Below, piece after piece: positions 6,585 through 64,000 of a stretch of DNA of 64,000 bases (the first letter of the stretch is position 1; each line of letters opens with the position of its first letter). The position numbers and the translations under genes are program-made. The notes beneath the pieces were generated by a model. That model did no database searches, had not been told where the DNA came from, and saw only the letters and a list, made by a program, of their open reading frames with translations. The DNA comes from Cyanidioschyzon merolae (taxonomy: Eukaryota), in the NCBI GenBank assembly GCA_000091205.1, contig AP006498.2; one strand, 5' to 3'.

Positions 6585-6619
6585 GCGCCACGACCAGCTC
6601 GCTATCCTGCATATGCTGC

Positions 6620-7367
6620 GTTGCAGGATCCGCCTGATCTTTTTCTGCACGATTCGTCACGGGCGATATCGAATACGGACCAGGACGATCCGCTTTCAAG
6701 CGCCGATAGTGTACACACATGGCTACGCCATCGGCTTCGATCATCCCAGTGAATACCTTTTGCTTGCTGGCTTTGAGACGCTTGAAGTCGAAGATATTCA
6801 TCCAGTGCGTCTCCCCGTTTTCACCGGTGAACTCCTCCGTGCTGACATCGAACTCCGGGCTGATCTCTCTCATGATCCCGTAAAGGACGCCGGAGTCGAT
6901 TGTCACAAAATGTGACTTGATGTTGCACAACGGAACGACGTTGAAGCGCTTACCCATTAGGAAAGCATCCCGTCTCTCCGACTTTTCATTTTTTCCCCGA
7001 CTCAGCTGCTCTTCGGCGTTGCGTTCGAGTTCTCGGTTCCGAAACAAGAAACAGCTTAGGATGACGGGATAACATCTTTTTTTCATTTCTGATACATTTT
7101 CTACGGGATTGACTGGCCCAAAACTGCACGGTGCTCCTGTATAGCCGCACGGATTACAGAAGCTTCATTTGTGCTGCTGTGTGACGTCTTCTTGTCGACG
7201 AATTCGATCTCCTGTCCACTCTGGCGATCGTTCGTGATACAATTGATGATGCCCCACATCCCTTTGCGCGAGATGCCCGGGTAGAGCGCAAAGATAGATC
7301 GTACCACGAAGCGTTCGAGGTTCACGGTCAGATGGTTCTTCAGGTTCGTCAGGTACTTCATGGGCAC
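6620..7367 (-). pseudogene. Truncated Fanzor-like ORF fragments of copy 1 (ORF A 7101..7367 and ORF B 6620..7086). The RuvC domains are missing.
   Basis: The proteins are about 93% identical to the copy 2 ORFs 26371..26637 and 25244..26356. Similarity ends before the GADPEN RuvC-I block. Confidence 0.7.
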
Positions 7368-8768
7368 TTAGAACTAAATATTCGAGTCATGCCTGTATCG
7401 AGTACCGTTGAAGCGGTACTTGGGGCATTTTTCGTGGAGGGCATATACTCGCGCATTTCGCTTCTACGCTTCCCCCGTGCCAAACATCAAGTGACGAATA
7501 AAGGTCTTGTCGAAAAATTCTTCCGGAACCTCTTCTGTTTCCATGCCCGTCACGTCGCGATACATATCCCTCGCGATATGCATCAGTCCTACGGCAGCGT
7601 CTCATACACTCATAGAGTGCGCCTCGAAACGGGTTCTGATGGCCTCTTGGGGCTTTTCCCTGTGCGGTTCTTTGATGTGTTTCAGAAGACAGGCTTTCAC
7701 CAGCATCTCGTAATATGATCGTCTTTCTCGCATCCATTGACGTCGGGCATCCCGCTGTCGCTTCTTCGACCTGTCTCGTTCCGCTTTGCTCGGCTCTGGT
7801 TTTCATTTTTCTCCGGCAGCCGGCGACGCCGGGCCTCCAGCATCCTCCACTTCCATTTCCATTACTTTCCATTGCTATGATAAGAATGCACTTTGGAAGC
7901 GTCTACTGTAAACTACGAAAAATCACTTGACTAGAGTACTGTAAGGGCTGAAACACGAATGAATCGCAAGACTATACTTTGCTATGACGTCAACGCAAAT
8001 ACGACTTGAACCTAAAGTACAACAACAAGTTAGCGAATGATCAGGATCGCAATTCCCTTCAAAAGCGAGATACGCGTCGAGTCTGATGCCTTCCAGACAC
8101 AGACGTGAGCGTAACGACAGCATTAAATGGAACAAAGAATAGAAACTCACTACTAACTAGCAATCCGATAGGAATTTCGTTTCCCACTACGATCGACGTT
8201 AAAAGGGGGAAAAGCTTGCCGTATCTTCGAAGGTTGATCTTCGAGGTGGAAAGTCTCGCGAGCCGGACGAATCCCCAGTGCTTGTGCTTCGTGCTCCACC
8301 CAGAGTCAGGTGATTTGGCGAGATCTGAGCAACTAATCCACAACGCAGTTTATTCTCGAACTAGGGGCAGTTGATGTGCCTCTGGGCGTCGCCCTGGTCG
8401 CAGTGGACTCTTAGTATATTGCTGCGCGCTGCCGCAGACAGACGTACTGTCTGCGCAGCTTGCGGACTCCCAGAATGATGATGTACGCCGACTCCGTGTC
8501 GATTGCAACACATCTCGAGCCGACGCCCTCAGTGGTACGGAAAAACCGTTCTGTCTCCGTGCAGCACCCGCTTCAGCGGTATAAGCGCTACGGCGAGTGC
8601 TCACGGCAGGCAGTCGTCGCAGGATAGAACATACGAAACGACCAGCGTATCCCAGAGGAATTGTAAGTAATGGAACCTGGAAGTAGGGTGCAGCATGGTG
8701 GACGATCACATGAATCTTAAAGCCCATCCCGGATTTCGGACTCCTTGGTCCATGGAAACGTTTTGTCA
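6620..8768 (-). mobile_element. Fanzor/TnpB-like nuclease element, copy 1. It is 3'-truncated and keeps only the 5' module, the leader and the N-terminal half of the ORF. It abuts the stop codon of the transporter gene.
   Basis: Region 6620-8093 is about 97% identical to 25880-27350 of copy 2. Region 8093-8768 is homologous to the 5' module of the other copies (same GAGATCTGAGCAAC and ATGGAAC.TGGA blocks). Homology stops about 35 bp after the transporter stop at 6584. The 5' motif block ATAGCGCGGTCGATAC... is deleted. Confidence 0.7.
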
Positions 8769-8824
8769 TCATAAGAGCAGGAAATCGCTGACAGCGTTGA
8801 CGTAGCAGGCGCCACGCACGTGCA

Positions 8825-24070: not shown

Positions 24071-24838
24071 CTACAAGGAAGCACGCCATGGCCGAGCCTG
24101 CGCCCCCAGAAAACCCGAAACGGATTCCACTCGATTCACCGCGGCAGTTTGAAGCGAACGCTCCCCATGAGTTTCCGGGCGATGTCGCTGTCTAACGAAC
24201 AGCGCCGTTGCATCCGCGTACACCCGTTCACGAGCGGTATCGCGACGAGCAGCCTCTAGCGGCCGCTGCAGCTGCAGTGCGCAGGTGTCCGTCGACTGGG
24301 CAAGTGCGCCAGCGTCCACGAGTCGTGACATGCCGTAGCACTTGCGCCGCGCCGGCTCCCTATCATGGACATAGGCCAACGCCAACACGTACGAGCCCAG
24401 TGGGACAATCTGCCGATAATTGACAACGAGCTGTGCCGTGACATACCCGTCCGGGTCCGAACGCGGGTTTGTCGCCATCCCGATGCTCGCGTCGAGGAGC
24501 GAGGCGATGGCGCCTCCGTGGACGCCTCCGCTCGGGCCCTGCAGGTTGCGACCCACGTACGCTGCGATAATCGCTCCGGGAACTGCCACTTTTGCCTCTG
24601 TTGAACTTTGATCCGATATGGAGCAAAAGCGAGCCTCTTTCTGTGACAAGTCATCGCAGACCGCTGCTGGCAACAGGTACGCTACTCGCTGTTGCAGCGC
24701 ATGCGACAAAAAGTCCGGGCGTTGTGCTCCTAACCAGCTGGCTCTCGGCACTTCGCGCAAACCATATCGCTCTTCCAGTCGACGGACAAAACATTTCCAC
24801 GCCTCAAGCGAGGGCAGTGTATCCTCCGTGAACGCCAT
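24071..24838 (-). CDS. Hotdog-fold acyl-CoA thioesterase (PaaI/THEM2 4HBT family), 255 aa.
   Basis: The ATG at 24838 is verified. The motif QGPSGGVHGGAIASLLDASIGMA is typical of PaaI-like thioesterases. Confidence 0.6.
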   Translation of the reverse strand: MAFTEDTLPSLEAWKCFVRRLEERYGLREVPRASWLGAQRPDFLSHALQQRVAYLLPAAVCDDLSQKEARFCSISDQSSTEAKVAVPGAIIAAYVGRNLQGPSGGVHGGAIASLLDASIGMATNPRSDPDGYVTAQLVVNYRQIVPLGSYVLALAYVHDREPARRKCYGMSRLVDAGALAQSTDTCALQLQRPLEAARRDTARERVYADATALFVRQRHRPETHGERSLQTAAVNRVESVSGFLGAQARPWRASL

Positions 24839-24949
24839 GGCGTCCAGTATGTCAGCTTCGAGAAGCGCAATGGCGCTGAATGAGTGCTTGCATCTGGAGC
24901 GTCGGGAACGCGGCGAGAACGTTCCGCGAACACACAGGGTAAATGGGTA

Positions 24950-27900
24950 CCGACGTGCAGACGTCTCCCAGTGTTTTTTGACCGGCCATCTACTACTGCC
25001 TCCAACTTATTCTCATCTAGTTTGACTTTGAGAGGTTGTCCAACAAAGTAGGCTCTCGACAGCTCGGGAGGTCTTTTTTCTCCATCACCACACATCTCCT
25101 GATATGGATAGCAGCATGAAAGTCACGATTCACAAACTCGATACATTTCTTGCCGCCGATGGTGGTTGTACTCAGTAATGGAAGGAGTCCTCGAACTTTC
25201 GCCCTCCATTCCATTTGCTCTGCAGTCAAGGCTCCGTACGTTTTTATATAACCTCAGGATTCCGCTGACACTTTTGCATCTCGACCCTCTGAAGTGTGCA
25301 CCGAAGCTCTTGGTGTATAAACGATGCTCGGAACTCATCTATGGGTACTGTGACAAATCGCCTCGCACACTCCGGGTACGTTCTTGGCGTTGCAGCTGGT
25401 GTGCTCTCTTTTTTCGACCCCCAGCGCCCTGCTCCGTATGCTACGACCAGCCTCTGACTTTCATCTCCTTTGAGGGCGCTCAACTCATTGAAAAAGTTCG
25501 CGAATGCACGCTGCTTCCCACAGTACAAGTTCAGACGCGGACGAGCCCGCCTGGGCATTGTATATTCTTTCCACAGCGCATTGCCATGAGCAACGCGAGT
25601 TTTGATGAATTCTCGAAAAGCTCGAAAGTCCGCTCCACGACTGGTAACATCGCGAATAGCTTCCAGGTGCTGTTTCGTGCCTGGATTCCATTTCTCAATT
25701 CTCTTCCTCGCACTCGTGAATCCCGATTCTCGATAGTATCTCGCCCTCGAGAACCTCAAAAGACGCATGTCTCTCTGGAAAAAGTTACCGTTGATACCAT
25801 ATTCCGCACGCTTGGGTACAGCGTTGGTTATTGTAGTCGCGTTCTCCGGGTCCGCGCCAACGACAAACTCGTTCTCCTGTACCTCCTGCGTCGCGGAATC
25901 CGCCTGATCGTTTTCTGCACGATTCGTCACAGGCGATATCGGAAACGGACCAGGAGGATCCGCTTTCAAGCGCCGATAGTGTACACACATGGCTACGCCA
26001 TCGGCTTCGATCATCCCAGTGAATACCTTTTGCTTGCTGGCTTTGAGACGCTTGAAGTCGAAGATATTCATCCAGTGCGTCTCCCGGTTTTCACCGGTGA
26101 ACTCCTCCCTGCTGACATCGAACTCCGGGCTGATCTCTCTCATGATCCCGTAAAGGACGCCGGAGTCGATTGCCACAAAATGTGACTTGATGTTGCACAA
26201 CGGAACGACGTTGAAGCGCTTACCCATTAGGAAAGCCTCCCGTCTCTCCGTCTCTTCATTTTTTCCCCGACTCAGCTGCTCTTCGGCGTTGCGTTCGAGT
26301 TCTCGGTTCCGAAACAAGAAACAGCTTAGGATGACGGGATAACATCTTTTTTTCATTTCTGATACATTTTCTACGGGATTGACTGGCCCAAAACTGCACG
26401 GTGCTCCTGTATAGCCGCACGGATTACAGAAGCTTCATTTGTGCTGCTGTGTGACGTCTTCTTGTCGACGAATTCGATCTCCTGTCCACTCTGGCGATCG
26501 TTCGTGGTACCATTGATGATGGCCCACATCCCTTTGCGCGAGATGCCCGGGTAGAGCGCAAAGATAGAGCGTACCACGAAGCGTTCGCGGTTCACGGTCA
26601 GATGGCTCTTCAGGTTCTTCAGGTACTTCATGGGCACTTAGAACTAAATATTCGAGTCATGCCTGTATCGAGTACCGTTGAAGCGGTACTTGGGGCATTT
26701 TTCGTGGAGGGCATGTACTCGCGCATTGCGCCTCTACGCTTTCCCCGTGCCAAACATCAAGCGACGAATAAAGGTCTTGTCGAAAAATTCTTCCGGAACC
26801 TCTTCTGTTTCCATGCCCGTCACGTCGCGATACATATCCCTCGCGAGATGCATCAGTCCTACGGCAGCGTCTCATACACTCATAGAGTGCGCCTCGAAAC
26901 GGGTTCTGATGGCCTCTTGGGGCTTTTCCCTGTGCGGTTCCTTGATGTGTTTCAGAAGACAGGCTTTCACCAGCATCTCGTAATATGATCGTCTTTCTCG
27001 CATCCATTGACGTCGGGCATCCCGCTGTCGCTTCTTCGACCTGTCTCGTTCCGCTTTGCTCGGCTCTGTTTTTCATTTTTCTCCGGCAGCCGGCGACGCC
27101 GGGCCTCCAGCATCCTCCACTTCCATTTCCATTACTTTCCAGTGCTATGATAAGAATGCACTTTGGAAGCGTCTACTGTAAACTACGAAAAATCACTTGA
27201 CTAGAGTACTGTAAGGGCTGAAACACGAATGAATCGCAAGACTATACTTTGCTATGACGTCAACGCAAATACGACTTGAACCTAAGGTACAACAACAAGT
27301 CAGCGAATGATCAGGATCGCAATTCCCTTCAAAAGCGAGATACGCGTCGAGTCTGATGCCTGCCAGATATGGAGATGCGGGTATCGACCGCGCTATATAG
27401 AAAAATAGGGAGAGATACTAGCCCCTAACCAGCAACTAGATAACAGTTTGCTCCCGCTCCACGGAAAGCATTGAAAGAGGGAAACGTTCTCCGTATTTAC
27501 GAAAGTTTATCGCCAAAGCGGAAGCGCCCTAGAGACGGACGAGTCAACGGTGATTGTACTTTGTAGGCATCTATAGTGCCGGGTGCTGAAGAGAGATCTG
27601 AGCAGAACGTCTGCAACGAAGATTACGCTGAGAAGAGCAGCGAACAGGATGCATCTAGACATCGCCCGAGACCCGATCGTCTCCGAGCATACCGCTTCGC
27701 GCTGCCGCAGGCAGTAGGCAGCAGGCCTTTCTGCACGGCTTTCCAGCTCCCAGAATGATCATGAATCCCGATGCCGTGTCGGGTGAACGATACCTCCAGC
27801 TGACGTCCTCAGTCATATGGCAATGCCTCGCAGTCTCTGTGCAGCATTCGAATCATCGGTATAGGCACTTTTGCTGACCATCAAGGCAACCTCGGTGCAC

Positions 27901-28045
27901 AATAGAACGTACGAAATAACCAGTACATCCGATAAAAAGTACAAGTCATGGAACTTGAAGGTAGCGTGCACCATGATGGATACGTTCACCGAATGCCAAT
28001 ATCTAATCACGGAATCAACGATGAATGGTCAATGTACGTTTTCTA
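24950..28045 (-). mobile_element. Fanzor/TnpB-like nuclease element, copy 2. It is full length and is the least damaged copy.
   Basis: The 3' end GTCTGCACGTCGG lies at about 24950. The three ORF segments are 25017..25229, 25244..26356 and 26371..26631. The 5' motif CCAGATATGGAGATGCGGGTATCGACCGCGCTAT lies at 27362-27395. The 5' module (GAGATCTGAGCAGAAC...ATGGAACTTGAAG) runs from 27590 to 28045. Confidence 0.75.
25017..26631 (-). pseudogene. Fanzor-like RuvC nuclease gene, in three segments. RuvC-I is [16 protein letters not shown] (Asp near 25852). The IDEFRAS block with Cys/His residues lies near 25336. RuvC-III is [13 protein letters not shown] (Asp near 25124). There is a single frameshift between 25229 and 25244, and a 10-bp gap relative to copy 3 between ORF A and ORF B.
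   Basis: The motif order and spacing are as in TnpB/Fanzor. The frameshift maps to GAGGTTATATAAAAAC, where the alternative frame continues as ...[19 protein letters not shown], matching copy 4 (...AIKKYGPLTEEQMETRAKL). The first ATG of ORF A is at 26631. Confidence 0.7.
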
Positions 28046-28513
28046 TCCAGCAAAAATATATCGGTAATAGGCGAGCGCTTCTGTAGCACTTGTGGCGGTA
28101 GTGAGGCGCACAGGGCTGAGCGCTCGCATGGGATGCACGCACTTGTCACACATCTGCTGGCGATGCCCTCAACCAACCAACCATCCAGCCAGCCAGCCAA
28201 GCAGGCGGGGGCAGCAGCGGGTGTTGTGCTTTCGTGCTGCCCGCGGTGCATAACTCACATACACCAGGGACGCTCGATCAAACTGCTCGTCTGGCTCACC
28301 GCGCCCAGACGCTGCAGTGACCAGAGTGCAACGCTTTCGGAGAGGTGTCGCACGGCAGACTCGGAGTTCGCTGCTCCTGCGGGCGACGACACCCGCCCGG
28401 GTGCTAGCGACGATACCGCTGCCGCAGCGCTATCCCGAATGATCATCACGACACCCGCATCTCCGTTCCTTACTTTTGTCCAGGGCATTAAAACCGAGGT
28501 TTACGTTCGATAG

Positions 28514-30352
28514 CTAGAGCTCTTTGGATCGACCAGAGTCTTGCACGATTCGATTCCAGAACGATGCGGCGGCAGCTGGCATTGCAGACCCCGCTGCATC
28601 GGTGACTTGGGCTGGTGCGTCTGGGGCCCTGGAGGGCGCCGCACGCTCCCTGTTGTCCGACACCTGAAGAGCGGCGGCATCCGTCGTTGGGGCAGTTCCG
28701 TCGCCTCCGGTGGAGCGCGTGCTGGGTGCCATCCAAACCGTCCCTCGATACGCCCGATCACGAGCTAGACCAGAGGCAAGTACATCCGCCATGGTGCGGT
28801 AGCGCGCTGTACCCGATGCGCTGGTTGTCTCCGTCTCCCCGAGGCGCGGGCGGTTCTGCAACATGTCCAAGAGGCGTTGTCGCTCCTGTTCTTCCTCTTC
28901 TCGTTGAATTTCGAGAAAACTGCGTCTTGACGGGCGTTGTTGTTGTTGGGCACGTTGCACCTGCGACTCAGCAGCACGTGCAGCGGCTCCGGCTAGCGAC
29001 AGGTGCGCGTTGCCAGCGCCAGTAGCGAGTGTCGATGCAGCGTTCGACGCCCATGGTGCAGGGCGTGCAACGCTCCCGCTACGATATCCTGGTCGATGCG
29101 ACCCGGCCTGCTGCTCAGCGGACGAACTCCTGGATCCAGTGTCTGAATGAACGCCTGGGTTCGTCACCAGCTTGTTCAACTGATCGAGCGCGTCCACTGA
29201 AGTCAATCGAACGTGAGAGTCCTGCGGCGCTAGTCTGGTCCGTAATTGTCGTTCTAGATACGCATGCTCTGGAGGTTCGATCTCTTTGCTGGCAGCTGAT
29301 GGCCACAACAACAACGTCGGGTTCGGATTCTCACGATCAGCGCCCGTCGCTGCTGCTCGATTACGGGCCTTTACCTGCTGCCATCCCTCGAGCTTGCTCG
29401 TGGTGCTGGCAGCGGCCTCGCTCGGAGCCAACGAAGCGTCTCCAAGCGAATGATCTCCCTGCTCTCCTGTTCTTAATGTGGCATCCGTGCTGTTTTTCTT
29501 CCTCCTGCGACGTCTTCGCGATCCAGCGGCTTGCTCTTGGGGCTCGTTAGCGCTTGTCGAGCCAGCTGCATCCGCTGCAACTGCTGCTAATGCATCTTTG
29601 GATGCCACGCTCTGGTTACTTGACGAAGCTGCCTCGGTGACCATCGCTGATGATACAACGGATCCGCGATCGGATACGCTCCGTGCCTCGCTGGTACCAG
29701 GGTCTGTCGATACCCCAGCAAAACCGGTATCCCGTGTACACTTCAGTGTAGATGATATGCTCTCAGAGTCATGTCCAGGGCGAACTGCAGCAGACTGCAG
29801 CGCTCTGGGCATTGCGTCAACCTCAGGGCTGCTGCGGACGGCTGGCCAAGGTCGCGAACTCCCCGCCGAGGGCGTTGCGATCCCTGGCTTTGGTTTCGTG
29901 CTCGAGACAGAGCCAGACGCTGGACCAGGCGCCGGTATGCTCTGGTCACGAACGCTGAGCGCTTCGACAGAGAGGTCTGGCGGCTGCCCTGGGGTTGCCT
30001 CACTGCCCAGCGGGGGCGCCTCGGCTGCGCTCCGAATCGTTGCATCTGTGGATAGCGCGGATGCAGTTCGACACTGCAAGTCCGCAGCAGTTCTCTGCAC
30101 CAGCGACCATAACACTCGGTTCATAGGCTGCGGCGAGGTTGACTCAGGCTGCTGGCTTATCGGTAGCCTTTCATCAAGAAATCCGTATCGCCACCATGCG
30201 ACGAGAAAAAGGGTTGGAAACGGGCCGCGTCTAGCTCCAGACGGATCTTGAAAGTACCATCGTGGCTGCGAATCATAGAGCACAGAGCTTACGGCCTGGT
30301 ACCAGAAGTTGGAGGCTCTCGAGTCGCCGCTCTCTAGCCCGTCGGCGTGCAT
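28514..30352 (-). CDS. GYF-domain protein, Ser/Ala/Arg-rich, about 612 aa from the first ATG.
   Basis: The N-terminal sequence NFWYQAVSSVLYDSQPRWYFQDPSGARRGPFPTLFLVAWWRYGFL matches the GYF consensus (W.Y.D..G..QGPF....M..W...GYF). The rest is low-complexity with an EEEQERQRL coiled segment. The ORF track start at 30361 is a TTG, and the ATG is at 30352. Confidence 0.5.
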   Translation of the reverse strand: MHADGLESGDSRASNFWYQAVSSVLYDSQPRWYFQDPSGARRGPFPTLFLVAWWRYGFLDERLPISQQPESTSPQPMNRVLWSLVQRTAADLQCRTASALSTDATIRSAAEAPPLGSEATPGQPPDLSVEALSVRDQSIPAPGPASGSVSSTKPKPGIATPSAGSSRPWPAVRSSPEVDAMPRALQSAAVRPGHDSESISSTLKCTRDTGFAGVSTDPGTSEARSVSDRGSVVSSAMVTEAASSSNQSVASKDALAAVAADAAGSTSANEPQEQAAGSRRRRRRKKNSTDATLRTGEQGDHSLGDASLAPSEAAASTTSKLEGWQQVKARNRAAATGADRENPNPTLLLWPSAASKEIEPPEHAYLERQLRTRLAPQDSHVRLTSVDALDQLNKLVTNPGVHSDTGSRSSSAEQQAGSHRPGYRSGSVARPAPWASNAASTLATGAGNAHLSLAGAAARAAESQVQRAQQQQRPSRRSFLEIQREEEEQERQRLLDMLQNRPRLGETETTSASGTARYRTMADVLASGLARDRAYRGTVWMAPSTRSTGGDGTAPTTDAAALQVSDNRERAAPSRAPDAPAQVTDAAGSAMPAAAASFWNRIVQDSGRSKEL

Positions 30353-31499
30353 CTCCGGCAACTCGAATAGACGCGAAACAACACCCTGCCCGTGCTTTGC
30401 ACTTCACTCGCTTCTGATGCTCTTCCAGATCAAGTAAAACGCGCGTTCAGAGACTCCCCCTTTGTTTTCCTGGTAAATCCCTTGCGTCAATCGCTGGTAC
30501 AGTGCCTCTCGCAAACCGTACGAGACGTCTTTCGAGCACAATCCGTGCCGAGTGCTTGCCAGCATGAAGCCGAATGCAGGTCGACAGCAGGTGTTCCGCG
30601 ACCTTGACTCCGTTACCGCGCTACCTAGGACCTTTTACAACAAGTACGTAACGGATGCTGTATACGAGAAAGACGATGCTCACGATCACCTGTGAGAAAA
30701 ACGCTCCAGGATAGCGCAAGTGGCTTGGAAAGCTCGCCGGGGCGCAGCTTTCGACGGCGTGAGACGCAACGCCGCGACATCGGCGCCCGGGCCTGTGTTT
30801 TTGCCCGACTTTTCGAGTCGATGCCTTGGGGCATCTGTTTTCGCGTGCAGCGGCAACTGGAGTCTTTGCGGGCATACAGTGCTATGTGCACCAGCGGCAA
30901 TGCCGCCCATGAGCACATATCGTGTAGGATGGTAGCAGTACGCACCCATTTGCGCTATAGAGACTGTGGGATGCTCGGTGGCGCTGGCCTAGGGCAAGGT
31001 GCACCCGTGCGCTCGGCAGCTTCCGGACCAGCACACCGTTTTCGTTTGTGTTGTGTTGTGCCTGCGAGGAGAACTCAATGAACGGAGTGCATCCTGTGGA
31101 TTCGAGAAAGATCTTGGAAAGACTCAGTGCTGTTCATGGTCACTAGAGAAAATGGACTTTAGTGGACAAGTAAGTCCGTCATTGTACGGTCAGCAGGTGG
31201 ACGAGGCACCACCCTCGCATCGTCCGTATACTGGACGGCGTGCTCCACGAAAAAACTGATTAAGAGCATTCGAGACGGTCGTTGCCTGTTGAATCTGTTC
31301 CAATCCATACGCGCTCTAAGAAATATTATCAATCATGACACAAAAAGGAAAGTTTCACCACCGGTGAGAGGATGAACAATGAAGAGAAAACTGTGGAATG
31401 AGACGAGCCTATGCTATGGAGAGAGCGCGTCGAACAATATACGAGCGATATCGTTCCGAAATGCGGACGCTTATTACAGAATCGACGGCCGCTCGTCTC

Positions 31500-31884
31500 A
31501 CTCAATGGGCCTCTATGCAAAACATTCTAGACCTGCATGTGGTAACGCAATGAGGCGCGAAGCGCTGTGCGGAACAACGTTACCGGCGAGCACGCGGATA
31601 GCGGCACCCGCGGCGGCGATGCAATTTCGGGATCGCCTGCGAATTATTACACGAACAGGGTCGTTGAGCATCTTGCTCATCATCGAAGCGTTCCTCGTGG
31701 CTGCCCGTTCACAAAGTCTTGGATGCTGCTCGTAGACAGCGTCGCCGTCCATCACTCTAAAGCGGTCGAGGAGTTCGTGGCTGAGACTGGCGTTGAGCTG
31801 CTCCTCGTGCCAGCCGATTCCCGCTGGCGCAAACCGGTCGAAGGCAGCTTCTCTGTTGTCGAGCGTTATTCTTACATTCGTTGA
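31500..31884 (+). pseudogene. Degenerate DDE(D) transposase C-terminal remnant, Tc1/mariner- or IS630-like.
   Basis: WMLLVDSVAVHHSKAVEEFVAETGVELLLVPADSRWRKPVEGSF follows the pattern h-DNA-x-pH-x-K-x-V-x-E-x-L-x-6-L-x-PpySPdLnPiE of mariner DDE_3 domains. Confidence 0.35.
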
Positions 31885-32164
31885 TCAATGGGCGAGCCAT
31901 TCACATCTATGACACGCTGCATCGACATGTCGTTCTATACTGCCTTTATCGGCCCGGAGCTGCTCTTTCACGCTTCTGCTCGTGCGCAGCGGAACGGAAG
32001 AGTGTGTTTCGGTCCATGGGCGTGCTCGCTACGGTTAAGGTGACGGAACGGGACTCGATGGCTTCTGGACACATACTCTGGATATGTGAGATTCAGAGCC
32101 TCCGCCAATTCAGTCGGTCTGCATTCCGAGGAAAGAAAGGATATAGAGTATAACGACCCCGTCC

Positions 32165-33460
32165 ATGCCATTTCGCGAAGTGAACGACAAGGCGATGAAG
32201 GATCTGGCCTCTATGGACAAGCACGAATCATTCGAGCAACTTTGCTCTGAGCATTTGTGGAGCTCGTACAGGCTTGCTCCATACCTGGCAAAAATGCGGG
32301 CAAGTTTAGATGGATTCCAGAGGACCGCTGTGTATCCATCTGCACGGATTTGGTGAAACTCGTGAAACCGGGACCTGAATCGAACGACGAGACTCATTTT
32401 CAACCATTCAATGTGGATGAAGAGAAAGGCAACCTATTGGGTGTGGATCCCGTGTCCGAACACATCATGGCCGTTGCCGTACCCGTAAACCAACAGTGCA
32501 GGGGCAAAGCCCTGAACGGAAACCAGACGACGATACGTAACTTGTTAAGGGCCCGGTATGATCGCGAGTCGGGCGTGATCGATACCAGGAGACCTACCGA
32601 CAAACGGAATGACAGTGCCAAAACCCCGAAGTCGACGCTCTGAGCACTGCATCGTGCAGAGCGGAATCCCCTGTTCGCCTCATTCAGAGTGAATATGAGC
32701 GTCGAAAACAGCTCATGCGGACGATGCTTGGTAAGAATACCCGAGAGCACGCTGTGGGTTGCCAACGATATCGGCTATGCGGGGGCGAGATGCATGTGTT
32801 CGAGAACTTGATCAATGTGCTTGGAAATGAAATGAACCGCAAGATGCGTCATTCGGTGGCAGCCCAAAGCGCTCAACGTACTGTGGCCCGCCAACGTAGC
32901 GCCTGTGCTCCCTCTACGAGCCCGCACAGCGCGTGCAGGATTCGATGCTGCACGATTCGCACCGATGCGTTCGGCACGACATCGGCACTATGGAGGCAAA
33001 TGTGCACACCGTGGTTAATAGACGTGGAGACGGGGACGAAACAGAGCCTGGATGCACGATGTGATGTACGGGAAGCTGACCGCAGGTCAGAGAGCGAAGC
33101 AATCGAAGGTGCGAGGCTTGCGATGCGGTGATTCCACCATCCCGACTACGTTCGAGAACGCGCTGCACCGAGACTTGAACGCCTCGATGACGACCCGGAA
33201 ATAGCATGCGCTTCGCGAGCGTCCAGCAGCTTTGTTTCGAGCGTTGCTTCGAGCGAATCGTTTTGTGCGCTGTATGGGTACTGTGTTGAAACGCACCAAA
33301 CGCACGATGAAGCGATTCGGCGGCCAGGGGAATCGACGTTGGATTCTGGCCTTGAGCACGGTACTGATATGGGACTGTTCGGCTATCCAGCAAGGCTGCC
33401 GCACCGACTTTATCAGTCCCGAAGGATTCAACTCAGCTAAGGATGAACGAAGATAGTGTT
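32165..33460 (+). pseudogene. Highly degenerate fifth Fanzor-like copy. RuvC-I is LLGVDPVSEHIMAVAVPVN, followed by TTIRNLLRARYDRESGV, then YRLCGGEMHVFENLINVLGNEMNRK and FGGQGNRRW.
   Basis: These blocks align to copy 2 as [56 protein letters not shown] and VVAYGAGRW. The fragments are spread over several frames, and no RuvC-III is recognisable. Confidence 0.45.
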
Positions 33461-35679: not shown

Positions 35680-36310
35680 AAGACGCGTTTCCACGGATCA
35701 GGGGATCCCAGATTGCCGGATGGACGGGTATTGGCATTCGGGAATGCGTCCAGGATGCTGCAGCCTATCTCCAAGTTCCATTGCTTGTACTTCCTCTCGG
35801 AAATACTGGTTGTTCTGTGGGTTCTATCGTGAACAGAGTGCCTGCGTCGCTGCTCCCGCCGTAGCGTCTATATCGCTGGAGTGGATGCAGCACGGAGATA
35901 GAGCTGTGCTTTGTCGTACCACTGAGGGTATCTGTTTGAGGAACGCTTCACCTGAAACGGTGTCGGGATACATAGTGAGTTTGGGAGCCAGAAATCTGTC
36001 CAGACAAGCCTAGTGCCTGCGACAGCTCGAATTGATATTCTGGGCGTCCACTGCGACCCGGGCGACGCCCAGATGCAGCGGAACTGCCCCGAGTCTCAGA
36101 GTCAACTGCGTTGCGTACGAGTTGCTCAGATCTCGCTAGAGCACCGGGCACGGAGGAGAGCATGGAGCACGAGCCTGGCAGACTCGCGCGGCTTGCAGGA
36201 TCTGCTACCTATACGGTAAACTGTCGACAATATGGAAACATTTTCCCGCTTTTAACGTTTATCTCAGAGGACGAAAGAAATCGTTGTATCGTTGCTAGTT
36301 GGTGAATCGT
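35680..36310 (+). repeat. Left arm of a long inverted repeat of about 650 bp. It is about 98% identical to the reverse complement of 38850..39537, and equals the 5' module of the element.
   Basis: Sampled about 200-nt stretches have only 3-4 mismatches. The ORF track shows mirror-image ORF pairs (36013..36219+ versus 38982..39188-, and others). Confidence 0.85.
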
Positions 36311-36791
36311 TTTTGCTCTTTGTTTGCATAGCGCGGTCGATACGCGCACCTCCATATCTGGTAGTTACGAGATGCGACGCGCATCTCGCCGTTGAAGGGA
36401 AACGCTATCAGGATAATTAGCAAGGTGTTCGACCCTACAAGTTGTACTTGCGTTAAAGCCATCGCAAAGTGTATTCCCTAAATTCAGTTGTGTTCCACTC
36501 TCAAAATAGTATATTCATATGCGTTTTCGCAGCTTACAACAGAAACCTTCGAAGTGCCTTTTATTTCAAAAATAAAAAAGTTATGGAACTGGAATTTGAG
36601 GATCCCGGAGGGCCGGTGTCGCCGACTGCCGAAGAAAAATGAGAAGCAGAGCCGAGCAAACAGGAACTGGAAAAGACGAACAAGCAGAACGGGGAGGCCC
36701 GACGTCCGGAGTTGTACGAAAGACGACAGTACCACGAGATTGCGGAGTAAGCCGGATTTCCTAAACATATCATGGACCGTACAAGGAAAAG

Positions 36792-38700
36792 TTGCAAGAT
36801 GCCATCAGAACCCGTGTCGAGTCCTTCTCTAAGAGTGTTCGTAACGCTTCTTTAGTGCTGATGCATATGGCGAGGGAGATGTATTACGACGTTACAAACG
36901 TCAAAACAGTCGAGGTTCCGCAGGAATTTTTAGACAATACCTTCATTCATCACCTGAAGGTTGGCGCAGGGGAAGCATCGTGGGGAAATGCGCGAGTACA
37001 TGCCCTCCAGGAAAGTTACACTGAATACCGCTTCAAGGTTACTCAATACAGGGGTGACTCGCGTATCTACGAGTACGGGGCGATGAAGTACCCCACGAAC
37101 CCGAAGAACCATATGTTCATGGACCTCGAACGCTTCATGATACGCTCCGTCTTCGCACTCTGCCCGGGTCTCTTGCGCAAAGCGATATGGAACATTATCA
37201 ATAGCATCACGGACGATCGCCAGCATGAACAAGAGATGAAATTCGGTAACAAGAAGAAATCACACAGTAGAAAGAATGAAGACTCTGTGATCCGTGCGGC
37301 TCTACAGGAGCACTGTGCGGTACTGGGGCTGCCGAATCCAGCAGAAAAGGTATCAGAGTTAAAGAGAGTTAAAGAAAGATTTTATATCTTCTTCCTGCTG
37401 TATTTCGTGTTTCCGAACCGAGAGCTCGAACTCAAGGCGGATATGGAGCAAGGTGTGGAAGAGCATGACGAGTCGTAGAAACGGAAGGCTGCGCTTCTTG
37501 GCAAGCGCTTCAATGTCATTCCATTATGCGACGTCAAATCACATTTTGTGATCATCGACTGCAGAGTCCTTTACAGCATCATGAAGGAGATCCGTCTGGA
37601 GTTCAATCTAAGCAACAGGGGGTTTACGGGTGAAAATTGGGAGACGTGCTGCAAGAAGATCCTCGATTTCAAACGCCTCAAAACGAGCAAGAATAAGGTA
37701 CTCACAGGCATCATCGAAAGCGATGGAGTAGCGAAGTGTGTACACTGTCGGCGGTTGAAGGTTGATCGTACTGGTCCGTCTTCCTTGTCGCCCACGGCGG
37801 AGCATGAACATGAGAAACTGGAGGATCTTGCGACGCAGGGGGTGCATGAGAGCGACTTTGTCGTTGGCGCGGACCCTAAGAATACGAATCTCGTAACCGT
37901 CGCAGCACCCAAGCGTGCGGAGGATGTTAACGACGGCAACTTACGTCATAACGACGTGCGTCTTTTAAAGTTCTCGAAAGCGAGATATTACCTAGAATCG
38001 GGAAAAATGAATGCAAGGAAAATAATTGAGACATGGAATGCAGGAGTGAAAGAGTACCTGGAAGCTGTGATCCAGGTGACGAGCCGCGGTGCGGAGTTTC
38101 AAGCTTTTCGGGAATTCATGAAACCTCAAACTGCTCATCAACAGGAGCGGTGGAAAGCGTATATCAAGCTCTGGTGGGCACATCAGCGAATGAACCTGGA
38201 CGGAGGCAAGCAGCTTGCATTCACTAACTACATCAATCAGTTAAGCACCCTCTAGGAAGACAAGGGTCAAATGCTCGTAAGAGCGTACGGAGCAGGGCGC
38301 TGGATAACCAAAACGGGAGCATACCTGCTCCGTTGACGCAGGGAGTACAAGGAGTGAGCATACCGTTCTGTCACAATACCGATAGATAAGTTCCGAACGT
38401 CCTATATACACCATGAACTGGGGGTGTACACGTCATTTGGTCGAGATGCAAAAGTGCCACCGGAGCGCTGGGGATATAGACAAGTACGGAGCGCTGACGG
38501 AAGAGCAAAGGGAAGGGACACGGAGGGCACAAATTTGAGGTCTACTTGCACTGGTGTATATAACCGGCTGCGGCAAGAAACGGATGGATTTTGTGAATCG
38601 TGACTTTAATTCAGTCGTCAATAAAGAGAGCTGTGCGTCGATGGATACAAGACCCGCGGAGCTGGCGCGACCCAACTTTTTGGGGCAACCGCTCAGGGTT
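36792..38700 (+). pseudogene. Fanzor-like nuclease gene of copy 3. It has a frameshift between 37478 and 37548 and further shifts after 38255. RuvC-I is FVVGADPKNTNLVTVAAP. The RuvC-III equivalent is mutated (RDFNSVVNK instead of RDFHAAINI).
   Basis: It aligns block-for-block with copy 2. The N-terminal region (QDAIRTRVESFSKSVRNASLVLMHMAREMYYD...) is open here, whereas copies 1 and 2 carry four nonsense codons in the same region. Confidence 0.65.
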
Positions 38701-38849
38701 AAATTATATGAGAGAAACTGAAGCCAGGAACAGGCGGCCGGTCGAGAAAGGCTGTTAGACGTCTGCACGTCGGTTTATACACACGCACGGTATCGGCGTG
38801 ATGGACGGAACGGCACGTCTAACAACGGGAGAGCGAAAGCAAGTGATGT

Positions 38850-39537
38850 GCAGCTATAGCGATGATCCACATGGTTGAAAAGGAACAGAGACGCACGATC
38901 CACTAGCAACGATACAACGATTTCTTTCGTCCTCTAAGATAAACGTTAAAAGCGGGAAAATGTTTCCATATTGTCGACAGTTTACCGTATAGGTGGCAGA
39001 TCTTGCAAGCCGCGCGAGTCTGCCAGGCTCGTGCTCCATGCTCTCCTCCGTGCCCGGTGCTCTAGCGAGATCTGAGCAACTCGTACGCAACGCAGTTGAC
39101 TCTGAGACTCGGGGCAGTTCCGCTGCATCTGGGCGTCGCCCGGGTCGCAGTGGACGCCCAGAATATCAATTCGAGCTGTCGCAGGCACTAGGCTTGTCTG
39201 TACAGCTTTCTGGCTCCCAAACTCACTATGTATCCCGACACCGTTTCAGGTGAAGCGTTCCTCGAACAGACACCCTCAGTGGTACGACAAAGCACAGCTC
39301 TATCTCCGTGCTGCATCCACTCCAGCGATATAGACGCTACGGCGGGAGCAGCGACGCAGGCACTCTGCTCACGATAGAACCCACAGAACAACCAGTATTT
39401 CCGAGAGAAAGTACAAGCAATGGAACTTGGAGATAGGCTGCAGCATCCTGGACGCATTCCCGAATGCCAATACCCGTCCATCCGGCAATCTGGGATCCCC
39501 TGATCCATGGAAACGCGTTTCGGAAAAGCGAAAATCT
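38850..39537 (-). repeat. Right arm of the inverted repeat. It is a second, inverted copy of the 5' module placed immediately after the copy 3 tail. It may be the right TIR of a TIR-type transposon carrying the nuclease gene.
   Basis: See the left arm. The outer end CCATGGAAACGCGTTTCGG mirrors the left terminus. Confidence 0.8.
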
Positions 39538-60163: not shown

Positions 60164-60194
<31 letters not shown>

Positions 60195-60195
60195 C
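60164..60195. repeat. (CAG)n microsatellite.
   Basis: Direct read. Confidence 0.85.
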
Positions 60196-60329
60196 CGCGC
60201 CATCCGCAGGGCAGCGTACGGAGCGGCAGGCACTGGTGCGATCGCTGTCCAATGATGGGCAGTTTCTCGAAGACGAAACGTTCACGTGGACCATGGATCC
60301 CAGATTGTGGGGTAGATATTCGCGCTGGG

Positions 60330-60660
60330 GAAAGCATCCACGAATCTGTACTCTGCCTTCAAGTTCGGTTCCTTACTCTTGCTCTAGGATATTCTGGTGG
60401 TTTTGTACGTAATATCGAGCGTCGAGTGCCTGCTCTGAGTATCCACGAAACTGTACTCTGCCTTCAAGTTCGGTTACTTACTCTTGCTCTAGGATATTCT
60501 GGTGGTTTTGTACGTAATATCGAGCGTCGAGTGCCTGCTCTGAGCATCCACGAATCTGTACTCTGCCTTCAAGTTCGATTACTTACTCTTGCTCTAGGAT
60601 ATTCTGGTGGTTTCGTACGTAATATCGAGCGTCGAGTGCCTGCTCTGAGCATCCGCCGGA
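60330..60660. repeat. Tandem repeat of about 108 bp x3, derived from the 5' part of the element module (…CAAGTTCGGTTCCTTACTCTTGCTCTAGGATATTCTGGTGGTTTTGTACGTAATATCGAGCGTCGAGTGCCTGC…).
   Basis: The unit anchors ATCCACGAA(T/A)CTGTACTCTGCC recur at 60335, 60440 and 60545. The unit is homologous to the single-copy stretch CAAGTTCCATTGCTTGTACTTCCTCTCGG...GAACAGAGTGCCTGC of the copy 3 left arm. ORF 60252..60800, with three repeated peptides, is an artefact. Confidence 0.85.
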
Positions 60661-61709
60661 GCGGTTATATATCGCTGGTGCAGATGCATCATAGAGACGG
60701 AAATGCTCTGCCGTACCACTGGGGGTGTCGGCTCGAGGTATCTTTAAATCAGCACGGAATCGGAGTACGTAATCATTCGGGGAGTCAGCAAGCTGCGTAG
60801 ACATACCTACTGCCTGAGGCAGCACGGCGCGGTATACGAAGATACTACGGCAAGCAGGGCGACGCCGAGACGCAGCATACCCGCTCCTGGTCCCAGAATG
60901 AACTGCGTTGTGGACGAGTTGCTCAGCTCTTGCTCCAGCGCTAGGCATTGGGCGGGCCTGACGTACGAGCTTGAGAGACATGTCCGGCTCGCGGTGCCTA
61001 CCGCCGAAAAGGTAAACTTTCGAAACTATGCGAACCTTCTCCCCCTTTTTCAAAGTTTATCGTGGAGGGCGAGACAAATCGGTATCTCGTTGCTAGTCTG
61101 TGGATAGTTTCTATACTATTTTCTAGATAGCGCTGTCGATACGCGCACCTCCATATCTGGCAGGCATGATGTACGATGCTCATGTCGCTGTTGGAAGGAA
61201 ACGCGATCTTGATATTTCGCTTGTTGCTCTAACGGACAAGCTGTATGTGCGCTGATGTCGTAGCAAAGTCTAGCTTTTCAGTTCCATTGTGTTTCGACCC
61301 CCAAGTCTGTGTACTCAAATGCTTTTTCGCGGTTTACAGCAGAATTGTTCGAACAGCGTTCTTTTTCAAAAACATAAAAAAGGAAAGTTCTGGAAATCGA
61401 AGTGGAGGATCCTGGAGACGCAGTATCGCCGGCTGCCAGAAAAAACAAAAAACAGTGCCGAGCAAAGACGAACAAGATAAGACCATGAAGCAAAAAGGGG
61501 TGGGGTGGTCCGACGTCAGGATCTGCGCGAACGACGACAGAACGACGAGACGTTCGTGAAAGCGTGTCTTCTTGGCCATACCAAGGATCCGTACAAGCAA
61601 AAGTTGCAAGAGGCCACAAGAAACCGTGTCGAGTCGCAATCGATGAGTGTTATATAGGCGTCGTCAGGAGAAATGCATTTAGTGAAGGACATAAATCGCG
61701 ATGTGACGG

Positions 61710-63586
61710 ATGTCAAAACAGTCTAGGCTCCGGAGGATTTTTCAGCGAAAGCTTTATTCATCATCTGATGGTTTGCACAGGGAAACGTCGAGGAGAAATG
61801 AGCATGTGCACGCTCTCCACGAAAATTACGCCAAATGCCGCTTGAAGGGTGCTCGATACAAGGCTGACTCGCGTATTTACGAACACGGGACGATGAAGCA
61901 CCTCACGAACCTGGAGAATCGCGTGATCGTGAAACCCGAACGCTCCATGATACGCCCCATCTTTGCGCTGTACCCGGGCCCGTCTCGCAAAGGGATACGG
62001 GCCATCGTCGGTGGCATCACGATCGATAGTAGGCATGCGTGGGAGATCGAGTTTGTCGAAAAGAAGACATCACGCAGAAGAAAGAATGAAGGTTCTGTAA
62101 TCCGTGCGGCTACTCGAGAGCATCGTGCGGTCTTGGGGCTAGTCGACCCAGCAGAAAAGGTATCAGGATCGAAAGAAGATGAAGAAAGATGGGATCACCT
62201 CATGCTGCGCTATTTCGTGTTTTTCGGACCGAGAACTCGAACGCAAGGCCGAAAATGAGCAGGGTGTGGATGCAAATGAAGCGTCGGAGACGCGGAAGGC
62301 TGAGCTTCTGGAGAAGCGCTTCAACGTCGTTCTGTTATGCGAGATCAAGTCACATTTTGTGACAGTCGACTCCAGAGCCCTTGACGGCATCATGCAGGAG
62401 ATCAGTTCGGGGTTAGGTGTCAGCACGAACGAGGTTACGGGCGAAAACCGGGAAACTCATTGAAGGAGTATCATCGATTTCAAACTTCTCAAAACGAGCA
62501 AGAAAAAGGAATTTACGGGGATGTTCGAAAGCGATGGGGTATCCATATGTCGACACTATCGGCGCTTGAAGGCAGACCGTCCAGTTCGGCCCTCGGCTTC
62601 GTCCTCGGCGAACCATGAAGAAAACAAGGAGGCGGATCCTGCGACGCAGGAGGTGGAGGAGAACGACTTTATGGTTGGCGCGGCGAAGCATAAAGATGGG
62701 ATGGAGGCGGGTCCTTCGCCGCAGGACATAGAGGATACCGACTTGTCGCTGGCGCAGACCCCGGAAACACAAAGATCATAACTATCGCTGTGTCCATGCG
62801 TGCGGAAGATGGTAACGAGGGTAACTTACGTCGGAGAGACATGCGTCTGTGGAGGTTCTCGAGAGCAAGAGACTAAAGAGAATCCGGTATAATGAATGCG
62901 AGGAAGAACATCGAGATGTGGAATGCAGGAATGAAAGAGCACCTGGAAACTATGAGCCAGGTGACGAGCCGCGGAGCGGACTTGAAATCTTTTCTGAAAT
63001 CCATGGAGGTTCGCGTTGCTCATTGGGAGGCGCTGTGAAAAGAATATACAAAACCCCGGTGGGCTCGTCTGCGTATGAATCTGTACAGTGGAAGCAGCGG
63101 GCATTCGCGAATTTTTTCAATGAGTTGAGCGCCTTGAAGGAGGATGAAAGTCAGAGGCTCGTAGTAGCATACGGAGCAGGACGATGGAAGACCCAACAAG
63201 GGACTACGCCAGCTCCAACGACGAGAATGTATAACGGGTGTGCAAGGCGTTTCGCTACGATACCTGTAGATGGATTCCGAACGTCCTCTACACACCATGA
63301 ACTGGGCTGTACACTTCAGAGGGCAGAGGTGGAAAAGTGCCAGCGGAGCCCTGAGGCTATAAAAAAGTACGGACCGCTGACGGAAGAGCAAATGGAAACG
63401 AGGGCGAAACTTCGAGGATTGCTTGCACTAGTGCGTACAAGCGGCGACAAGAAATGTATGGAGTTTGTTAACCGAGACTTTCACGCCGCTATCAATATAA
63501 GGAGATGCGCGGTGATCGAAAGAAGACCCCCCAGAGTTGACAAGAGAGAATTTTGTGGGGGAGCCTCTCAAAGTGGAATTATATGA
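61710..63586 (+). pseudogene. Fanzor-like nuclease gene of copy 4. RuvC-I Asp is lost (FMVGAAKHKD against FVVGADPEN). The C-terminal part is intact, with RTSSTHHELGC and [13 protein letters not shown] (Asp near 63479). At least three frameshifts are present.
   Basis: Alignment to copies 2 and 3 is block by block. Confidence 0.7.
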
Positions 63587-64000
63587 GAAAAAGTTGGAAC
63601 CAGTAGTAGGTAGCCGGTCCAAAAATACTGGGAGGCGTCTGCGCGTCAGCCGGAGACCTCTTGTCTAGGGCGCGGGTCACTCGCCACTACTGAACACCGC
63701 TGGCGGCAACGTTCTTCTTTTGAAAGGCGTTTGCTTTGCTTTGTCAAATAGCATGGATGTGGTCGCTGTACTGTACATACCCATTTTTCTCGGATTTCGG
63801 ACGCGCTGGATGGACGCCTTTTCAAGTTCGATTTCTGTTTTATGCATCCACGATTCCTTGGGTAGCATGTCGGCACCGTTTGCACCGCGAGCGTGCCCGC
63901 AGACCTAAGCGCGCCTTTCCATTCTCTCGTGCACGCGGGCGGGTAGCTAGAGACCAGTTCAGTAATCGTGAAGTGAAAGAAAGCCTCGTCGGAGAACTTT

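Follow-up and report, generated by a model that had tools for sequence, protein, structure and literature searches.

Decayed Fanzor1-encoding elements in a 64-kb stretch of the red alga Cyanidioschyzon merolae fit the description of the published family CMe-1A

The Fanzor proteins were named by Bao and Jurka (2013, Mobile DNA 4:12; PMC3627910), who described one Fanzor1 family, CMe-1A, from Cyanidioschyzon merolae, a red alga. According to this description, CMe-1A is represented by about 150 copies of an element of about 3 kb that are about 80% identical to their consensus, some of them being intact; the element has no terminal inverted repeats (TIRs), its target site duplications (TSDs) were undeterminable, and its class among the transposable elements was left unclassified. 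The 5′ 635 bp of CMe-1A are 95% identical to TE-N2_CMe, an element without an open reading frame (ORF) that is present in about 70 copies (PMC3627910). Earlier, 253 copies of a transcribed 3.2-kb repeat, amounting to about 5% of the C. merolae genome, had been reported by Nozaki et al. (2007; PMC1955436), and the truncated ORF of this repeat was found to resemble WSV486 of white spot syndrome virus (WSSV), the genome of which is itself a listed Fanzor1 carrier (PMC3627910). The best structural match is SpuFz1 of Spizellomyces punctatus, the active site of which is listed as D383/N385/E541/D606 (Saito et al., 2023; PMC10432273) and the elements of which have 30-nt inverted repeats, a proven 75-nt omega-RNA scaffold and a 14–15-nt guide. 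C. merolae is not mentioned in Saito et al. (2023), and in the literature searched, we found no Fanzor link to red algae beyond Bao and Jurka and one unrelated preprint. Here, we describe Fanzor1-encoding elements in a stretch of 64,000 nt of C. merolae DNA (contig AP006498.2; below, “the window” refers to this whole stretch), starting from a locus at about 25–28 kb, which a preliminary description made from the sequence alone had flagged as a TnpB/Fanzor-like nuclease element.

The copies in the window are, with a probability of about 0.93, decayed members of an interspersed repeat of C. merolae 10D that encodes Fanzor1 and fits the published description of CMe-1A. A BLASTN search of the 64-kb window with positions 24001–29000 as the query showed that an element of about 3.1 kb recurs four times, which is far beyond chance because E = 0 was obtained for every copy. 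The matches comprise copy 1 at 6585–8702 (−), which is 88% identical to copy 2 and 3′-truncated, copy 2, the flagged locus, at 24949–28001 (−), copy 3 at 35729–38774 (+), with 71% identity, and copy 4 at 60557–63647 (+), with 71–77% identity. The ends were then refined with the terminal motifs, as listed in Table 1, and the pairwise identities between the window copies range from 71% to 88%. Joining the frames of a consensus from the four-copy alignment yielded a protein of about 634 aa. A family hidden Markov model (HMM) matched translated pieces of all four copies, the best piece being 25247–26434 (E = 8e-126), and also matched a fifth, divergent relic on the plus strand (E = 4.5e-9 and 2.6e-8). 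Thus, both the recurring multi-copy protein family of the preliminary description and its remnant at 32.2–33.5 kb were recovered. The copies are embedded among nuclear genes of C. merolae, and four ORFs of the window exactly match the C. merolae 10D proteins BAM81695, BAM81697, BAM81704 and BAM81706, which are encoded on a chromosome of 908,485 bp. The host had been described as a eukaryote with spliced genes; the first part is correct, whereas introns occur in only 0.5% of C. merolae genes (PMC1955436, Table 2), and the host genes in the window are long uninterrupted ORFs.

The likeness to CMe-1A and TE-N2_CMe extends over the species, the size of about 3 kb, the multi-copy state, the similarity of about 70–90% between copies, the lack of TIRs, the undeterminable TSDs, and the 5′ module of about 635 bp that also exists as a separate ORF-less element, for which the window holds a copy of 617–639 bp. 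The repeat of 3.2 kb with similarity to WSV486 (Nozaki et al., 2007) fits as well. Nothing conflicting was found; the copies in the window are all pseudogenes, whereas some genomic copies are intact according to Bao and Jurka. The Fanzor1 reading of the preliminary description is therefore correct for a family already in print, the repeat having been reported in 2007 and the family in 2013, and the suggestion of a candidate new effector lineage does not stand.

The assignment of the protein was approached with a protein-collection search, which returned 88 relatives, nearly all of them hot-spring metagenome proteins. The best relative, P0001 (752 aa), showed 60% BLASTP identity over 99% of the query, and 69% identity in an alignment of 21 sequences (A1), which was the basis of the family conservation and of a profile search of the PDB. 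The most conserved blocks in A1 are GxDPGxNI, DEFRTS and NRDxNAAxNI. With the A1 profile, just three sets of PDB entries were matched, all of them Fanzor1, namely, Parasitella parasitica Fz1 (9cf0, E = 2e-18), SpuFz of S. punctatus (8gkh, E = 6.7e-14) and GtFz1 of Guillardia theta (9cer, E = 8.5e-6). The DPG, DEF-TS and NRD blocks align with the corresponding motifs of the solved Fanzor1 structures; specifically, the Glu block of the family aligns with LDEYKTS of 8gkh, and the RD block with NRD of both 8gkh and 9cf0. According to arithmetic on the offset of the maltose-binding protein (MBP) fusion, DPN, DEYKTS and NRD of 8gkh correspond to the active-site residues of SpuFz1. For the structural comparison, P0001, the closest intact relative, was modelled with AlphaFold2, standing in for the window copies (predicted local distance difference test score, pLDDT, 76.9; predicted template modelling score, pTM, 0.73). 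The top Foldseek match of this model was SpuFz (9cez/8gkh, E of about 1e-16, target TM 0.72, about 760 columns), followed by PpFz and GtFz, whereas Cas12, Fanzor2 and TnpB were all weaker, with E > 1e-3 (about 1e-2 for Fanzor2 9b0l and TnpB 8h1j). In its overall fold (WED/REC/RuvC/NUC), this relative is thus like the solved Fanzor1 proteins.

Because the PDB profile search, the fold search, and the alignment of the D/E/D motifs with those of SpuFz1 all point to Fanzor1, the placement of the protein in the Fanzor1 branch of the TnpB/Cas12 superfamily, carried on a multi-copy eukaryotic element, is sound. As judged from the alignment, the RuvC D/E/D triad is retained by the family: the RuvC-I Asp (D358 of the alignment) is invariant in 21 of 21 members, and the Glu of the DEF block (E530) as well as R598 and D599 of RuvC-III are nearly invariant. 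The TnpB/Fanzor-like RuvC nuclease of the preliminary description was thus confirmed by the profile matches and by the fold of a relative; all three RuvC motifs lie where they had been placed, and the numbering of D169 and E341 was exact. The window protein had no match to Pfam OrfB_IS605 or OrfB_Zn_ribbon, and the family profile significantly matched the Fanzor1 entries of the PDB. The family shares with SpuFz1 (PDB 8GKH) the fold, the profile match and the aligned DPx, DE[YF]xTS and NRD motifs, and the elements are alike in having a single ORF, ORF-less relatives (abundant “ghost” elements in S. punctatus), and non-coding sequence that is conserved behind the ORF (PMC10432273). The two proteins are only about 15% identical in sequence and, in contrast to SpuFz1 elements, CMe-1A has no TIRs, a candidate RNA only, and no conserved zinc-finger cysteines.

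Related loci from hot-spring metagenomes (n = 80) were fetched, and long open frames with all three motifs were present in five of them (L001, L013, L021, L006 and L071). The ratio of nonsynonymous to synonymous substitution rates (dN/dS) among the intact relatives was 0.29–0.50, except for the near-identical pair L001/L013 (99% identical), for which it was 0.97. These ratios indicate that the protein has been under selection, which, by this measure, is purifying in the intact relatives from related hot-spring algae.

All four copies in the window are dead pseudogenes. The coding part of copy 2 extends from about 27072 to 24949, not from 26.6 to 25.0 kb as first described. It contains four stops within the N-terminal 182 codons and another one after ...NPEVI, and frameshifts at 26356/26374, at 25229/25244 and near 25095. 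The longest intact piece, a 370-aa ORF at 25244–26356 (−), holds the RuvC-I motif and VPIDEFRAS, and the RuvC-III motif is located in a separate ORF at 25017–25229 (−). Copy 3 has five in-frame stops, counted in the tblastn-aligned frames, and one frameshift, and copy 4 has many stops and frameshifts as well as a duplication just before RuvC-I. The RuvC-I motif reads GADPEN in copy 2, GADPKN in copy 3 and GADPGN in copy 4; the Glu motif is intact in copy 2 (IDEFRAS), with E replaced by K in copy 3 (IDKF) and by G in copy 4 (VDGF); and RuvC-III, NRDFHAAI[HN]I, was found in copies 2 and 4. The RuvC blocks are kept in the family; in the window, the Glu is mutated in copies 3 and 4, and copy 1 ends before RuvC-I.

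Upstream of RuvC-I, there is an acidic unit of about 25 aa (..ATQEVQDNDF.VDA.KHE..K.A..) that is prone to tandem duplication, with one extra unit in copy 4 (about 62600–62750) and about three in P0001 (residues ~373–471). The P0001 model is disordered at these repeats (pLDDT < 50).

The plan of the element consists of a non-coding 5′ leader of about 1.1 kb, followed by one intronless Fanzor1 ORF of about 640–750 aa, to which complete copies add a conserved non-coding 3′ tail of about 100 nt that ends in a hairpin. The first ~635 bp of the leader also exist separately as the ORF-less element TE-N2_CMe. At the 5′ end of copy 2, the motif TTTTTGCTGGATAGAAAACG is located at 28034–28056, and the 5′-end consensus across copies is TTTTTTCGATGACAAAACGTTTACATGGACCATGGATCC, usually preceded by A. 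Inspection of the 5′ and 3′ flanks of the copies revealed no TSDs, and no TIRs were seen. A 639-nt, 97%-complementary “TIR” of copy 3 was considered and rejected, as its right arm belongs to an independent ORF-less copy and no counterpart exists at the other copies. This inverted ORF-less copy lies about 130 bp past copy 3 and, paired with 35683–36299 (+), mimics long TIRs. Because all other copies are about 30% different, its 98% match to copy 3 suggests local duplication or gene conversion. The possibility that the 5′ leader is a decayed DDE_3 gene was likewise discarded, as tblastn gave no match inside the elements.

In copy 4 and in most of the metagenomic copies, the element runs about 100 nt past the end of copies 2 and 3. 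Conservation of this tail reaches to about ...GAA[AC]G[GA]CGTTTG; about 10 weakly conserved G/T-rich bases and then unrelated flanks come next, a pattern seen in 31 non-redundant independent copies. Within the window, the canonical tail is confined to copy 4. The 3′ end of copy 2 stops at ...GCACGTCGG, without the canonical tail of about 100 nt. The defined ends attributed to the family thus do not apply to copies 2 and 3, which lack the canonical 3′ tail, nor to the apparent TIR of copy 3, which belongs to its ORF-less neighbour. An alternative short ending (GTACCCAT..GTATCG.CG-like) is common to copies 2 and 3 and to L054, L055 and L058 (window positions 24900–24949 and 38774–38830; L054:2189–2240); it may represent a separate subfamily or a shared truncation. 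For most copies, a hairpin is predicted in the last ~30 nt of the canonical tail (z < −2 for 14 of the 28 copies), and two well-pairing versions exist, CGTTCGA-CTT-TCGAACG and AACGTTTTTC-TTTT-GAAAGACGTT. This stability of individual copies is suggestive for a structure of the tail. A scan of alignment columns produced many chance helices, and Rfam gave no match in 24.5–28.5 kb.

Two further observations concern the tail. The locus L008 carries the conserved tail (882–1041) without an upstream Fanzor ORF, and in this it recalls the “ghost” elements found in S. punctatus. In addition, TTTYCAGKRGT directly follows ...CGTTTG in the 3′ flanks of five independent copies (L031, L037/L039, L063, L024/L032 and L003/L051), so that in this subgroup either the element is about 11 nt longer or insertion occurred into a repeated target.

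Table 1. Coordinates of the Fanzor1 elements, their parts and related relics in the window
Feature	Position	Strand	Remarks
Copy 2, CMe-1A-type Fanzor1 element, pseudogene	24949..28056	−	BLASTN, alignment, terminal motifs
Degraded Fanzor1 coding region of copy 2	24949..27072	−	at least 5 premature stops, at least 3 frameshifts
RuvC-I Asp codon, D169 of the 370-aa ORF, motif GADPEN	25850..25852	−	aligns with the SpuFz1 DPN motif
Glu codon, E341, motif IDEFRAS	25334..25336	−	corresponds to catalytic E541 of SpuFz1 by arithmetic
RuvC-III Asp codon	25122..25124	−	ORF reading and profile alignment
5′ non-coding module of copy 2	27420..28056	−	homologous to the ~635-bp ORF-less element, TE-N2_CMe type
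Copy 1, truncated at the 3′ side just upstream of RuvC-I	6585..8771	−	88% identical to copy 2
Copy 3, pseudogene, without canonical 3′ tail, Glu motif changed to IDKF	35683..38774	+	
ORF-less 5′-module copy, inverted (TE-N2_CMe type)	38902..39518	−	matches the 5′ end of copy 3 at 98% identity
Copy 4, pseudogene, Glu motif changed to VDGF, sole window copy having both ends	60261..63733	+	
Canonical 3′ non-coding tail of copy 4, terminal hairpin	63630..63733	+	nhmmer E = 7e-26
Decayed DDE_3 transposase relic	31426..31944	+	tblastn E = 5e-15
Divergent Fanzor1 relic (LLGVDPVSEHI; IRTDAFGTT)	32251..33128	+	closest to P0046, 33% identity, E = 1.4e-13

Several results weigh against the reading of these copies as CMe-1A elements with a nuclease and its RNA. 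When the ORF pieces and the 634-aa consensus were scanned singly against Pfam, no relevant match was obtained, intact relatives were likewise without a match in a Pfam set that does not include PF26935/DUF8286, and phmmer against the PDB with a single sequence returned noise only; because these searches were empty, the Fanzor1 relationship is visible only through profiles and structure. As to the RNA, RNAalifold found almost no consensus structure in the tail (five pairs, no covariation), covariation in two hand-drawn tail structures, evaluated by explicit pair counts, was not above that of shuffled controls, and the copy-4 tail alone folds no better than shuffles (z = −0.13). What marks the tail as a candidate omega-RNA is its position and its conservation. 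The preliminary description had also placed a zinc finger after the Glu motif, and this was not supported: the Cys and His residues are not conserved across the family, no conserved CxxC pairs are present between the Glu block and the RD motif in the 21-sequence alignment, most relatives (P0075–P0085) have no Cys in this stretch, and CPTCH occurs only in the distant P0087. Since the canonical C4 zinc finger of TnpB and Fanzor proteins is not conserved in this clade, the intact members are to be regarded as putative nucleases. We read the missing C4 finger as a probable clade-specific loss, the remaining defining features of Fanzor1 being present. Finally, the identity with CMe-1A was derived from a match to the published description, namely the species, size, copy behaviour and shared 635-bp 5′ module.

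CMe-1A encodes no transposase, and the nearest relatives outside the Cyanidioschyzon group offer one possible explanation for its mobility. These proteins, P0055, P0064 and P0085 (42, 42 and 30% identity, respectively, in the 21-sequence alignment), are each encoded directly downstream of a DDE_3 (Tc1/mariner-type) transposase gene. At the P0055 locus, the transposase and Fanzor1 genes lie between imperfect TIRs of about 30 nt, and a conserved spacer of about 150–180 nt separates the Fanzor stop codon from the right TIR. The same layout appears in the window at 31.4–33.1 kb, where the two relics of Table 1 have the order transposase-then-Fanzor1 and the orientation seen in the metagenomic loci L082–L085, L088 and L089; the transposase relic reached E = 1.6e-6 against Pfam DDE_3 (28.5 bits, with a cut-off of 28.6), and P0046, the closest protein to the Fanzor1 relic, is a close relative of the transposase-linked P0055. 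This region has the appearance of a decayed composite transposon with transposase plus Fanzor1, separate from CMe-1A; no convincing TIRs were found around it. The gene order of the sister lineage, together with a relic of the same layout in the window, suggests that the transposase-less CMe-1A descended from such a composite or co-existed with it. Mariner/Tc1-borne Fanzor1 elements, described also by Bao and Jurka (2013), are thus the nearest relatives outside the Cyanidioschyzon group, from which the CMe-1A copies differ in having neither transposase nor TIRs.

Going one step further, CMe-1A could be a non-autonomous derivative of a DDE_3 transposon that once carried both genes, and its mobilisation in trans by DDE_3 transposases could be past or ongoing. 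The linkage of P0055, P0064 and P0085 to DDE_3 genes, the P0055 pair within TIRs, the window relic and three more DDE_3 relics in the window all argue for such a derivation. However, the CMe-1A copies lack TIRs, no TA or other TSD was detected, their ends are unlike the TIRs of the sister elements, and the DDE_3 relics in CMe loci are not consistently adjacent to the elements. On balance, we consider this derivation unlikely. The three additional DDE_3-like remnants, at 3797–4353 (+), 21594–21788 (+) and 48638–48856 (+), are weak (tblastn E from 1.6e-5 to 4e-4), and none of them adjoins a Fanzor relic. The genome paper mentions “eight class II elements”, and these remnants may belong to that set.

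A rolling-circle origin appears still less likely, at odds of something like one in ten. CMe-1A and TE-N2_CMe would then be Helitron2-like elements, as are the Fanzor1 elements CRe-1, 2 and 3 of Chlamydomonas. Insertion after TTTT and hairpins at the termini are features of Helitron2 elements (PMC3627910), and the copies studied here agree with this in lacking TIRs and TSDs, in a T-run that opens the 5′ end, usually after A, in a hairpin about 10–25 nt from the 3′ end, and in some 3′ ends, as well as the end of the ORF-less copy, that read ...TTGCTRG and then T. However, many 3′ ends deviate from CTRR, and the exact 3′ boundary is not fixed. Helitron2 elements also have asymmetric TIRs and depend on RepHel; no RepHel gene was seen, and no search aimed at RepHel was made. 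MAFFT hinted that the 3′ tail resembles the internal ~635 site, but this likeness was not significant, as nhmmer gave no match. In addition, the authors who defined Helitron2 left CMe-1A unclassified in the same paper (PMC3627910).

The preliminary description saw in copy 2 an OMEGA/Fanzor system that is near-intact and recently active, belongs to a new lineage and is a ready candidate for a genome-editing effector. All D/E/D motifs are indeed present in copy 2, and no intact stretch of the window is longer than its 370-aa ORF. Against this stand the four stops within the N-terminal 182 codons, the further stops and the at least three frameshifts, the divergence of the copies (88% identity to the nearest paralogue and 71% to the others, hardly a sign of recent activity), the missing canonical 3′ tail, and the fact that the family has been in print since 2013; this view, which the sequence contradicts, is very improbable. 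That the protein is instead a Fanzor2 or a TnpB of the bacterial type (IS200/IS605 or IS607), there by horizontal transfer or contamination, can practically be dismissed, since the RuvC motifs common to the whole superfamily and a marginal Cas12f1-like_TNB match of the distant P0087 (E = 0.023) are outweighed by the exclusive profile matches to Fanzor1 structures, by a fold match of about 1e-16 to Fanzor1 as opposed to about 1e-2 to 9b0l and 8h1j, by a size of about 640–750 aa with a large N-terminal region where about 400–500 aa would be expected for TnpB, by the absence of a TnpA or serine recombinase ORF in or next to the copies, and by the location of the copies among nuclear genes. The family of the window is like ISDra2 TnpB/OMEGA in the RuvC fold and triad and in an ORF that reaches the conserved element end, and unlike it in the weak structural match (8h1j, E = 0.019), the lack of a Pfam OrfB match, the eukaryotic host, the much larger N-terminal region and the lack of TnpA.

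Around the Fanzor1 elements, a few features of the window are worth recording. The ORF at 4866–6584 encodes a Pho91-like phosphate transporter identical to BAM81695.1, and copy 1 breaks off exactly at the base after its stop codon, so that the copy 1 fragment is the immediate 3′ flank of this gene (6582–6585). The 5′ module of copy 4 contains a tandem repeat with a 105-bp unit (3.1 units, 60333–60654, 96% matches), which creates a spurious 182-aa ORF at 60252–60800, and a (GCA)n microsatellite of 10.7 units lies just upstream of copy 4 (60164–60195).

In TnpB systems, the omega-RNA is encoded in the region of the element end. By its position, the tail of the Fanzor1 element would be a candidate omega-RNA scaffold, like the scaffolds of SpuFz1 and GtFz1, with a guide from the flank. 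By analogy with these two systems (Saito et al., 2023), the protein of an intact copy would bind an omega-RNA for which the 3′ tail is the template, and about 15–20 nt of flanking DNA just past the 3′ end of the element would serve as the guide. DNA that matches the guide and adjoins a target-adjacent motif (TAM) would be cleaved by the complex, and this would help the element to be retained or to spread. The copies in the window are incapable of such guide-directed cutting. For intact members of the clade, both those in the metagenomes and those in strain 10D according to Bao and Jurka, we regard it as possible, although well short of probable, that they are active RNA-guided endonucleases that use the tail of about 100 nt as omega-RNA and dispense with the canonical zinc finger.

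As it stands, the weight of these results is limited, because the Fanzor1 family found here was already catalogued for a model red alga and has only dead copies in the window. The 3′ tail, the selection on intact relatives, and the transposase-linked sister lineage with its relic are additions of this analysis, which we regard as leads and not as discoveries. The family accounts for about 5% of a genome that is among the smallest of free-living eukaryotes. If the intact members are active, they would represent a Fanzor adapted to a host living in acid springs at 42–56 °C, and additional guides might come from ORF-less elements of the TE-N2 type, in the manner of the S. punctatus “ghost” elements. 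Since the host is thermo-acidophilic, a Fanzor for editing that tolerates heat could be found in an intact member, and the intact metagenomic ORFs, the 3′ tail, and the transposase-linked sister lineage with its relic in the window provide starting points for studying the omega-RNA and the origin of the family.

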